From a virus (lineage: Duplodnaviria > Heunggongvirae > Uroviricota > Caudoviricetes): DNA of 21,078 nt. The stretch lies in the IMG/VR virus record IMGVR_UViG_2872164251_000006; one strand, written 5' to 3'. Position 1 is the first letter of the stretch. Each line of letters opens with the position of its first letter. The position numbers are program-made. Positions 1-3,000 of this stretch are shown here, piece after piece.

Positions 1-3000
1 ATGATGAAAAAAAGTATTCTGGCGTTTCTGTTACTCACCAGTTCTGCAGCGGCGCTGGCGGCTCCACAGGTGATAACCGTGAGTCGTTTTGAAGTGGGTA
101 AAGACAAATGGGCGTTTAATCGCGAAGAGGTAATGCTGACTTGCCGACCGGGTAATGCTTTGTATGTCATCAACCCAAGTACCCTCGTGCAGTATCCTTT
201 AAACGATATCGCACAAAAGGAAGTTGCCAGTGGGAAGACCAATGCCCAACCCATTTCGGTGATTCAGATTGATGATCCTAACAATCCCGGCGAAAAAATG
301 AGTCTGGCACCGTTTATAGAACGAGCTGAAAAACTCTGTTAATTACCTAAAATAGCCTTTTGATTTCCAATAAAAAAACCGCCTCAGTTCTTTCACCAGA
401 ACGGGCGGTTTTTAACATTTAAGCTGATGACCACCGCGCTTTTTATTGACCATTTTGCACGCAAACTGGAAAACCTGGCGTCGTCATCTATTCTTAAAGG
501 GCAAGGCAACTAAGCCTGCATTAATGCCAACTTTTAGCGCACGGCTCTCTCCCAAGAGCCATTTCCCTGGACCGAATACAGGAATCGTATTCGGTCTTTT
601 TTTAATTGTATTTAAAATCAATTAGTTGCAAACGTCTCCCCGAAATTCCCCGAAATTTACTCGAATTTCTGTATTCCGGTCTTTTTTGGTTATATCACAA
701 CCAAAATACATTTAACAATCCATTTACGTTAAAATCAGAGCAGTAAGTACGTTTTTTCTCTCTCATCAAGATACATTTTTGTTGTCTTCTCCGATGTGTG
801 GCCAAGTAGACGCTGAGCAAATTCTTCTCCACATATTTCTTTGTACAATCGTCCAGCCAGGCTTCTGATTTCGTGAAAAGTTGGTGGGTTTTCACTGAAC
901 AGGATACCTGTTAATTTTCTGGCTGCGACAAATTTCTTTGTCAGGCCGTCCGGGTGAATGCTGCCGTCAGGGCTGTTTTTTCTAATCCCGGCACTGATTA
1001 GATAATCCCCCCCTACTTACCATGCGGCACTGTTCAACTACTGCACCAAGTCGTAAACCAGCGACAGGAAGGCTGAGTGACAGGGGGATAGCAATCATCA
1101 TTCCTGTCTTAATTTGCCTGATGTGGAGACGATCATCATAAATATCACTGAACCGCATATTCGTTATGTCTTCGCGACGTTGTCCTGTTACAAGGGCTAA
1201 GTCCATAGCTAATGGGAACCATGCCGGAAGTTGATCTGCTGCCTCCCTGATGCAGTTGTATGTCTTTAGTTTCAGCCGTTCTCTTGTAACTACTATTTTC
1301 GGTGCTCTTGTTGGCGTTACTGGATTTTGAGATATACGTCCTTCAACAATGGCTTCGCGGAACATATCAGATAACACAGAACGCATTGATCCTGCCATCG
1401 TGTTTTTCCCTCCTTCAATCCACAAATCAAGAAACTCGGCGATATGGCGAGTGGTTATTTCTGTCAGTAAAACCCCTCCTAATTTTTCTTTTATTGTCAC
1501 CAGTTGATTTACCCGAGTTTTATAAGTATTTCTGGACGCTTTTCTCCTTATAAGAATCGTTTTGTAACGTTCAATCCAGTCTGCCATAGTAAATGAGTCG
1601 ACCCCTTTAAGCTTTTCAATTAGGGCAGCAGGAGAGTAGTTTTTGTATATATAATGATTTGCTTCAATTGCCTGCGCTACTGCATCTCTTCTTGAAATTT
1701 TACCTAGTGTAAATTCTTCTTTCGTCAGAGGGTTGCGCCAGTAATATGCTTTGTCTCTCCTTCGATATGTTAAGTTTCTAGGCAAATTGGGATCGTATTT
1801 TTTCCGCTGCATGTTTTAACTTCTCCATTAACGGACTGTCTCTCCCTTGTCGCCCATTAGGCTGATGGTGTGTTATATCGGTATCAACCTTATTTGGGTT
1901 GATATAGAAAGCCTCCGGAACCACCCTGTAACTCCTCCCGTGTAGTTCAGGTGCAGGATAAATGTTTCCATTCCTTGCCCATCGTCTCAGCGTTGATATT
2001 GATGGTGGGTTATCCGGATATCTGAGTTTTCCCCACGTTTTGAGTGTCACAAGATTCATTGCCATACCTCTCACGATATGACCGCCAGTAAATATACAGA
2101 ATACTGGCGGGTGTGGTTGATTTTTAATAATCTGAGGTGTACTGGCAATAGCGGACACTACCATTTGTTCTTTTTTTAAGCAGCCATCTGATGATATTTT
2201 TCCCTGAAGGCTGCCGGGGAGATATTCCCCAGACGAGAGTGACGACGCTGACGATTGTAGAAAATCTCAATGTATTCCCGTATTACTGAGATGGCTTCAT
2301 CCCGGTTATTAAAACGATAGTGGCTCAGGCTCTCATTTTTCAGCGTTCCCCAGAAGCTTTCCATCGGAGCATTGTCGTAACAGTTACCTTTACGAGACAT
2401 TGATGTTTTCAGACCAAACTGCTCCTGTATGACCCGGTAATCGTATGCGCAGTACTGTGAACCTCGATCAGAGTGGTGGATTAGCCCGGCAGGTGGGCGC
2501 TGGCTCCTGAGCGCCATAAACAGGGCTTTACCTGTCAGCTCTTTTGTCATGCGCTCTCCCATGGCGTAGCCGACAATTTCGCACGTATAAACATCTTTGA
2601 TGCCAGCGAGGTACAACCATCCCTCCTGTGTGGCAACATACGTCAGGTCCGCCACCCAGACCTGATTTGGTGCTGTAGGAGCGAACGTCTGGTTCAGCAG
2701 ATTTGGCGCAACTGGCAGATTGTGGTTCGGGTTCGTAGTCGCTCTGAACTTGCGTTTCTGCTTACAGCGTAGCCTCAGCTCCTTACGAAGACGTGCCAGT
2801 CGGTCACGACCAACGATGATGCCATTCTCTGCCAGCTCCGTCTGGAGCCGCCGGGTTCCATATGTTTCGCGAGTGCGGATATGTGCCACCTTAATCTCCA
2901 GTTTTAGCCGCTCATCACTTTGTTTTCTGTCTGAGGGTTCATGCTGTACCCAGTTGTAATAACCGCTCCTGGATACACCAAATACCTGACACATCGCTTC

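Follow-up and report, generated by a model that had tools for sequence, protein, structure and literature searches.

All prophages of Shigella flexneri strain Y394 have been described as cryptic, in a study that also describes a 24.8-kb ipaH island (PMC5596473), and copies of ipaH have been found surrounded by prophages and pseudogenes (PMC9046306). Two further papers, both citing Balbontin et al. 2008, name the ryeA/ryeB locus as a prophage attachment site (PMC7380047; PMC3333887). Here, we studied a stretch of 21,078 nt filed as a virus record (IMG/VR IMGVR_UViG_2872164251_000006; "the window" below means this whole stretch), which is a segment of the S. flexneri chromosome and a case of ordinary prophage decay. 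It holds a defective lambdoid prophage, located between yebY and pphA, whose integrase gene (int) loses its reading frame at a run of seven G (G7). We consider it very probable that G7 arose by insertion of one G into a run of six (G6), and that int is an ordinary, clade-fixed integrase pseudogene of a decayed prophage.

The integrase frame breaks within a run of seven G

The run reads CCCCCCC on the plus strand (1007-1013) and hence G7 on the minus strand, which codes for int; no other G/C homopolymer of at least 7 nt occurs within the window. On the minus strand, frame 0 starts with the ATG at 1812 and comprises 276 codons, its stop being the TAG at 982-984. The +1 frame is blocked by a TAA (1017-1019); from 1016 onwards it stays open as far as the TGA at 735-737. 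Because frame 0 ends at 982-984 and the +1 frame opens at 1016, the switch of frame must lie between 985 and 1016; only across 985-1016, around G7, are the two int frames open together. Alignment with Escherichia coli and Shigella homologues places the single-base insertion or deletion inside the G run itself, over which both frames encode Gly-Gly (frame 0, ...VSRGG LSNQCRD*; +1 frame, *VGG DYLIS...). The parts of the gene are as follows.

982-1812, minus strand: int 5' part, codons 1-268 authentic, then eight out-of-frame codons (GLSNQCRD) and TAG
1007-1013, minus strand: G7 homopolymer, site of the +1 G insertion (ancestral state G6, from homologue alignments)
735-1016, minus strand: int 3' part in the +1 frame, codons 269-358 and stop, encoding H313, R316, H338 and Tyr347

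We dropped the argument that a G7 run is improbable in itself, as 1.34 such runs are expected by chance in 21 kb, where one was found, and 64 of 100 shuffles contained one. The run is meaningful because it coincides with the frame break and because one base fewer is present in all E. coli homologues that were inspected or listed. An earlier note on this DNA had claimed that the frame switches exactly at the C7 run with Gly-Gly in both frames, and frame translation confirms this to the base; the catalytic motifs that it had reported in the downstream frame (HxxR, His and Tyr) are present there on alignment to lambda Int. Its central claim, of an integrase lost to a frameshift within a run of seven identical nucleotides, is borne out; the Tyr nucleophile is missing from the open reading frame (ORF).

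Run length in E. coli homologues

Among 5,426 complete E. coli genomes, 228 carry int at 96-98.5% identity, and among the matches listed it is one or two bases shorter than the int of the window. All 40 rows that were sampled are annotated as tyrosine recombinase or integrase. Three of the four E. coli coding sequences inspected are 1077 nt long (358 aa); the fourth, of 1116 nt (371 aa), owes its length to a 1-nt deletion near the 3' end. At the tract itself, four aligned E. coli homologues read GGGGGG or GGGGAG. A 77-nt query centred on the tract was identical in none of the 214 E. coli genomes that it matched, so the G7 stretch was not reproduced there, and every match listed spans 76 bases. 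Since the E. coli homologues have six bases at the tract, G6 is the ancestral state and the window carries a +1 G insertion, for which replication slippage within GGGGGG, adding one G, would be the most plausible source.

A search of 50,697 phage records returned a single match, PP818812.1 ("Actinobacillus phage vB_Apl-pPE4"), which ends with an integrase (46387-47508) of 97% DNA identity to the E. coli/Shigella int; the host label or the assembly of this record looks doubtful.

What the broken gene keeps and loses

Once a G is removed from the run, int encodes a 358-aa protein that matches lambda integrase structures over residues 8-353 (E=4e-71), and in the alignment its residues R212, K235, H313, R316, H338 and Y347 correspond to R212, K235, H308, R311, H333 and Y342 of lambda. 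With G7 in place, translation leaves the authentic frame after Gly268 and stops eight codons later. The resulting 276-aa product retains R212 and K235 and is without H313, R316, H338 and the Tyr347 nucleophile, so that four of the six catalytic residues are gone; the 5' part spans the arm-binding and core-binding domains and the first ~40% of the catalytic one. Pfam gives the same picture. Families PF09003 (residues 4-61) and PF22022 (91-169) are found in the actual ORF and in the restored protein alike, and Phage_integrase is matched by the restored protein over profile positions 3-169 of 172. In the actual ORF the match is restricted to profile positions 3-73 of 172 and scores 25.9 bits, short of the cut-off of 27.1, and neither frame holds a complete catalytic domain. 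We thus read int, from its sequence, as a pseudogene of the lambda-type tyrosine integrase family. Since the four residues are absent, the truncated Int is predicted, from homology to lambda Int, to be unable to cut or rejoin DNA. The lesion is already visible in public records, for example in EGK23079.1, a "bacteriophage lambda integrase, N-terminal domain protein".

Two frames that overlap at a slippery run could also mean that the gene is functional, and that full-length Int is made from G7 by +1 ribosomal frameshifting or transcriptional slippage. The sequence GGG GGG G allows perfect +1 re-pairing of tRNA-Gly, the rare codon AGG stands directly before the run, and in Shigella other genes, mxiE for instance, make use of transcriptional slippage. 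However, recoding sites are conserved among homologues, and no conserved two-frame arrangement was found in the E. coli homologues (228 genomes) or in four intact Shigella alleles, which are plain single ORFs with G6; the shifted arrangement is limited to one recent clade. Further, known efficient slippage tracts are A/T runs of at least 9, and the RNA family search reported no recoding signal over int, the sole frameshift element being an ALIL pseudoknot (6721-6837) that lies in an insertion sequence (IS). We regard a functional, recoded int as extremely improbable.

G7 is a real allele

Several long-read and pyrosequencing platforms err most often by gaining or losing bases in homopolymers, and the third option of the earlier note was a sequencing error, by which one assembly would show a miscalled extra base in a genome that really has G6. 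In keeping with this, the window spans several IS copies, which suggests a finished or long-read assembly, and two nanopore-like records of a sister lineage have numerous small gaps when aligned with it. However, the exact 276-aa product is present on 273 public contigs, indexed in 288 blocks (NCBI and Logan), that come from various projects and years. Its carriers include S. flexneri K-1770 and VA-6 as well as Logan assemblies of public runs, and its records include EGK23079.1, EIQ12563.1 and SRN47155.1, from different projects and years. One Logan contig (L005, from SRR29259261) is 100% identical to window positions 1-2161 (2,161 nt), G7 included, and the same pipelines assemble G6 lineages as G6. 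The 273 contigs and the identical contig therefore rule out a one-off assembly error, and the error option is rejected; a G6 genome behind the window is extremely improbable.

A nested series of alleles

Hypothetical int products of other run lengths were built and looked up exactly in public proteins (~15 billion). The alleles found by exact look-up are listed below; the third is that of the window.

D78/E105/G6: intact, 49 contigs
D78/V105/G6: intact, 25 contigs
D78/V105/G7: frameshifted, 273 contigs
G78/E105: intact, 109 contigs, including ABF03998.1
G78/E105/W131amber: at least 1000 contigs

The same look-ups returned no product with G4, G5, G8, G9 or G10 on V105 or with G7 on E105, and neither D78/E105/W131* nor D78/V105/W131* was found. 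A metagenome scan for V105 together with the tract found nothing, a scan of species-representative genomes returned just two records, each belonging to the sister W131amber lineage and having G6, and a look-up with the exoVIII fragment of the prophage gave no further G7 genomes. YebY, encoded next to the prophage, is identical across lineages and so does not single out that of the window. The first three alleles form a nested series in which E105V came first and the G insertion second. G7 is a real, inherited mutation, characteristic of one S. flexneri clade, and it arose on a V105 background.

This pattern is the one predicted by a single fixed mutation and not by a hypervariable tract, and the former is favoured. 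The earlier note had offered both, and had suggested that the length of the homopolymer be compared across related strains. In that comparison the relatives have G6 or GGGGAG and G7 is found in one S. flexneri clade; the nested alleles and the absence of other run lengths argue for the single mutation. Of its slippage-prone tract, what stands is a likely origin for the mutation, and there is no evidence that the tract acts as an ongoing switch.

Such a switch would make the run a contingency locus, with reversible G6/G7 changes turning int ON and OFF so that a sub-population regains Int and excises or loses the ipaH island carried by the prophage. Both G6 and G7 do occur in S. flexneri on an otherwise identical V105 protein background; the longest V105/G6 contig (24.9 kb) and the identical G7 contig L005 (24.7 kb) are similar in length, a hint of close kinship; and both attachment (att) cores and an open frame for the excisionase gene xis have been kept. 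Phase-variable loci, however, show several tract lengths among close relatives irrespective of phylogeny, and here V105 has only G6 and G7, with G4, G5, G8, G9 and G10 missing from the ~15 billion proteins, and G7 is never seen on the E105 or G78 backgrounds. The run is broken as GGGGAG in some E. coli homologues and is thus not a conserved tract, and the sister lineage lost int by an irreversible nonsense mutation. In addition, 6-7 G is shorter than the typical phase-variable tracts of Neisseria, Haemophilus and Campylobacter loci. We hold a contingency locus of this kind to be very unlikely, and likewise a more restricted form in which the switch works at low frequency, toggles the excision competence of an intact attL-xis-int-attR arrangement, and has the 25 V105/G6 contigs as its revertants. 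If a switch did exist, the ipaH island would normally be fixed, and rare G6 revertants could excise and lose it.

Several points weigh against reading int as an ordinary pseudogene fixed in one clade. In principle, the strains with V105/G6 (25 contigs) may be revertants instead of ancestors. Contig counts mirror the sampling of epidemic clones and not allele fitness, and the gene calls of the public collection leave out PGAP pseudogenes, which makes counts not comparable across sources. The presumed loss of excision draws on homology to lambda Int, and perfect +1 re-pairing of peptidyl-tRNA-Gly on GGG GGG G may allow some full-length Int at a low level.

Parallel loss in a sister lineage

In a sister branch of S. 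flexneri, the intact G78/E105 allele gave way to W131amber (TGG to TAG; window equivalent ~1420-1422). An int with G6, D78G and W131amber is found in L006, L007, L009, L010, L013, L015, L026 and L027, and some W131amber genomes add a 1-nt A insertion near codon 303 (window ~902). One and the same integrase was thus inactivated on two independent occasions, once in each of two S. flexneri branches, and intact intermediates survive in both. Just outside the window, beyond yebY, the chromosomal gene copD is also split into two ORFs, at different positions in the two lineages (L005 2174-3046, 63+222 aa; L007 12071-12943, 103+181 aa); these are further lineage-specific pseudogenisations.

Attachment site and borders of the prophage

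The left end of the window is chromosomal, and the prophage begins within the terminator of a small RNA gene.

1-342: yebY, at the window start
463-607: sraC/ryeA, antisense to sdsR/ryeB (Rfam)
504-603, plus strand: sdsR/ryeB small RNA gene (Rfam), whose 3' end is the attachment site
590-597, plus strand: attL core TTCGGTCT, inside the SdsR/RyeB terminator
18738-18745, plus strand: attR core TTCGGTCT, with the sdsR tail of the chromosome and pphA after it
598-18745: defective lambdoid prophage remnant, ~18.1 kb, with borders from the empty-site test

The Rfam scores over the sdsR/ryeB-sraC/ryeA pair are 118 bits (RF00111) and 179 bits (RF00101). At the SdsR terminator, ACAGGAATCGTATTCGGTCTTTTTT is repeated as ACAGGAATCATGTTCGGTCTCTTTTT at 18727-18752, directly before pphA. 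In the empty-site test, window positions 300-597 and 18746-19050 were joined (603 nt). The best-matching E. coli genomes carry this joined sequence uninterrupted at 99.8%, and 5,191 of 5,426 E. coli genomes have at least 80% of it in a single place. The empty site is thereby recreated, and therefore the element is 598-18745, with the 8-bp core TTCGGTCT at each end. Both marks of a prophage integrated at sdsR/ryeB, the direct repeat of the att core and the recreated chromosomal site, were found. The arm of attR on the phage side (18456-18745) occurs in 208 E. coli genomes.

Prophage content and decay

Besides int, the following features were annotated within the remnant.

1778-2059, minus strand: xis, excisionase ORF of 93 aa (PF07825 Exc, E=7e-14), overlapping the int start by 35 nt
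2133-3396, minus strand: IS600, 1264 bp, 99.4% identical to an annotated IS600-family transposase stretch (also Pfam)
3433-3621, minus strand: DUF1187/ydaC-like ORF (Pfam)
5070-7823: second IS600, split at 5862/5863 by a 1310-bp IS3-family element (5863-7172), perhaps IS629
6721-6837: ALIL programmed-frameshift pseudoknot, within the inner IS3-family element
9996-10763, minus strand: IS1 (PF03400, E=1e-73)
13851-15043, minus strand: truncated IS600, which replaces the lysis and morphogenesis region
16429-18144, minus strand: ipaH, 571 aa, a type III-secreted NEL E3 ubiquitin-ligase effector with LRR (PF14496 NEL, 6.7e-77; PF12468 LRR_TTSS)
18273-18455: CssrB, a Shigella small RNA

The public collection has the exact xis protein in 7,821 blocks, and, judged on the att cores and the xis ORF, int appears to be the only inactivated recombination gene here. 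The first IS600 (2133-3396) sits 73 nt upstream of xis and parts xis-int from the rest of the early region. Inward from the DUF1187 ORF follow AAA_24, gam, the split IS600, a 474-aa exoVIII fragment and IS1, and after IS1 come DUF1367, ybcO, Q, four tRNA genes, a P21-type holin, the truncated IS600, tail-fibre fragments, ipaH and CssrB. Apart from the tail-fibre fragments, the window annotation (Pfam included) shows no gene for terminase, head or tail in the remnant, and therefore no particles are to be expected, whatever the state of int. Nor does it hold the complete replication, lysis and morphogenesis set of an inducible phage: what is there amounts to early fragments, Q, tRNAs, the holin and the tail-fibre fragments. 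At 18.1 kb, with at least five IS copies, it compares with ~47-53 kb in E. coli relatives in which both ends are collinear.

Two assignments were tried and rejected: the 1264-bp IS copies are not IS629, given the annotated IS600 match, and the ORF at 3433-3621 is not ralR, given its DUF1187/ydaC-like Pfam match. The RalA antitoxin small RNA has a full-length match (216 bits) at 3437-3615 on the plus strand, antisense to this ORF, and no ralR toxin ORF follows 3433-3621, the next gene, AAA_24, starting at 3672. The early-region variant found here may have retained the antitoxin RNA without its toxin. Downstream of Q, a cluster at 12849-13663 holds Met-CAT, Arg-TCT, Thr-TGT and Val-TAC tRNA genes (ARAGORN), two of them with modest Rfam scores; the P21-type holin comes next, and the region is then abruptly truncated by IS600 at 13851. 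At the far end, ipaH and CssrB form a cargo immediately inside attR, downstream of the tail-fibre fragments. In lambdoid phages this is where a "moron" usually lies.

Past attR, pphA (18883 onward) is cut by an IS600 copy at 19373-20629, which is followed by a DUF1482 phage gene (20803-21078) and not by the rest of pphA. An IS-mediated rearrangement or deletion appears to have joined another prophage past pphA (window 18883-21078). In the window the prophage runs collinear from attL to attR; other complete S. flexneri genomes have it rearranged. In these (L016-L025), the ipaH-attR-pphA end and the exoVIII/gam/AAA_24 segment (matches to window 3656-9995 and 15044-19333) are joined to a different truncated integrase, which lies beside an ABC metal-transport operon; in CP026765.1 and CP020339.1, yebY-int is ~0.46 Mb away from the rearranged ipaH/exoVIII segments. 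The same segments are arranged differently in these genomes, a sign of IS-mediated rearrangement.

Consequences

If Int is inactive as predicted, the remnant would be expected no longer to excise with its own Int, and the ipaH island would be fixed in the chromosome. Pseudogenisation most likely locks the ipaH-bearing island in place. The parallel W131amber knock-out is suggestive of a favoured, island-stabilising fixation; both null alleles may also have hitch-hiked in heavily sampled epidemic clones. Two independent int knock-outs, with att cores and an open xis kept, offer an example of a virulence-gene prophage on its way to becoming a fixed island, and the G7 insertion and W131amber can serve as clean clade markers for two S. 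flexneri branches. For annotation, int should be recorded as an integrase pseudogene (frameshift after codon 268) and not as an "N-terminal domain protein", and the 18.1-kb region from yebY/sdsR to pphA as a defective prophage carrying ipaH. Beyond annotation, the lesion is of little importance.

Comparison with known systems

The remnant resembles the cryptic S. flexneri prophages and ipaH regions described before (PMC5596473; PMC9046306) in its gene loss, its several IS, its ipaH cargo and the pseudogenes nearby, whereas it differs in the survival of the att cores and of an open xis; the int lesion and the allele series are undescribed in those two papers. With PhiW104 and other Salmonella elements at ryeA/ryeB (sraC/sdsR) it shares, according to PMC7380047 and PMC3333887, the same kind of attachment site, the last ~23 bp of ryeB/sdsR. 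The hosts differ, and the element here is a defective remnant.

Like the contingency loci of Neisseria, Haemophilus and Campylobacter, int has a coding poly-G frameshift with in-frame and out-of-frame lengths within one species. Unlike them, its run comes in two nested lengths, is short and is not conserved among homologues.

A further close system is the bacteriophage lambda integrase, a tyrosine recombinase (PDB 1Z1G, 1Z1B, 5J0N, 1P7D, 1AE9), with which int shares the three-domain architecture (arm-binding, core-binding and catalytic) and, once the frame is restored, all six catalytic residues; as in lambda, int overlaps the upstream xis and adjoins attL. The gene here is broken after codon 268, however, and the prophage is attached at the 3' end of sdsR/ryeB, whereas attB of lambda lies between gal and bio.

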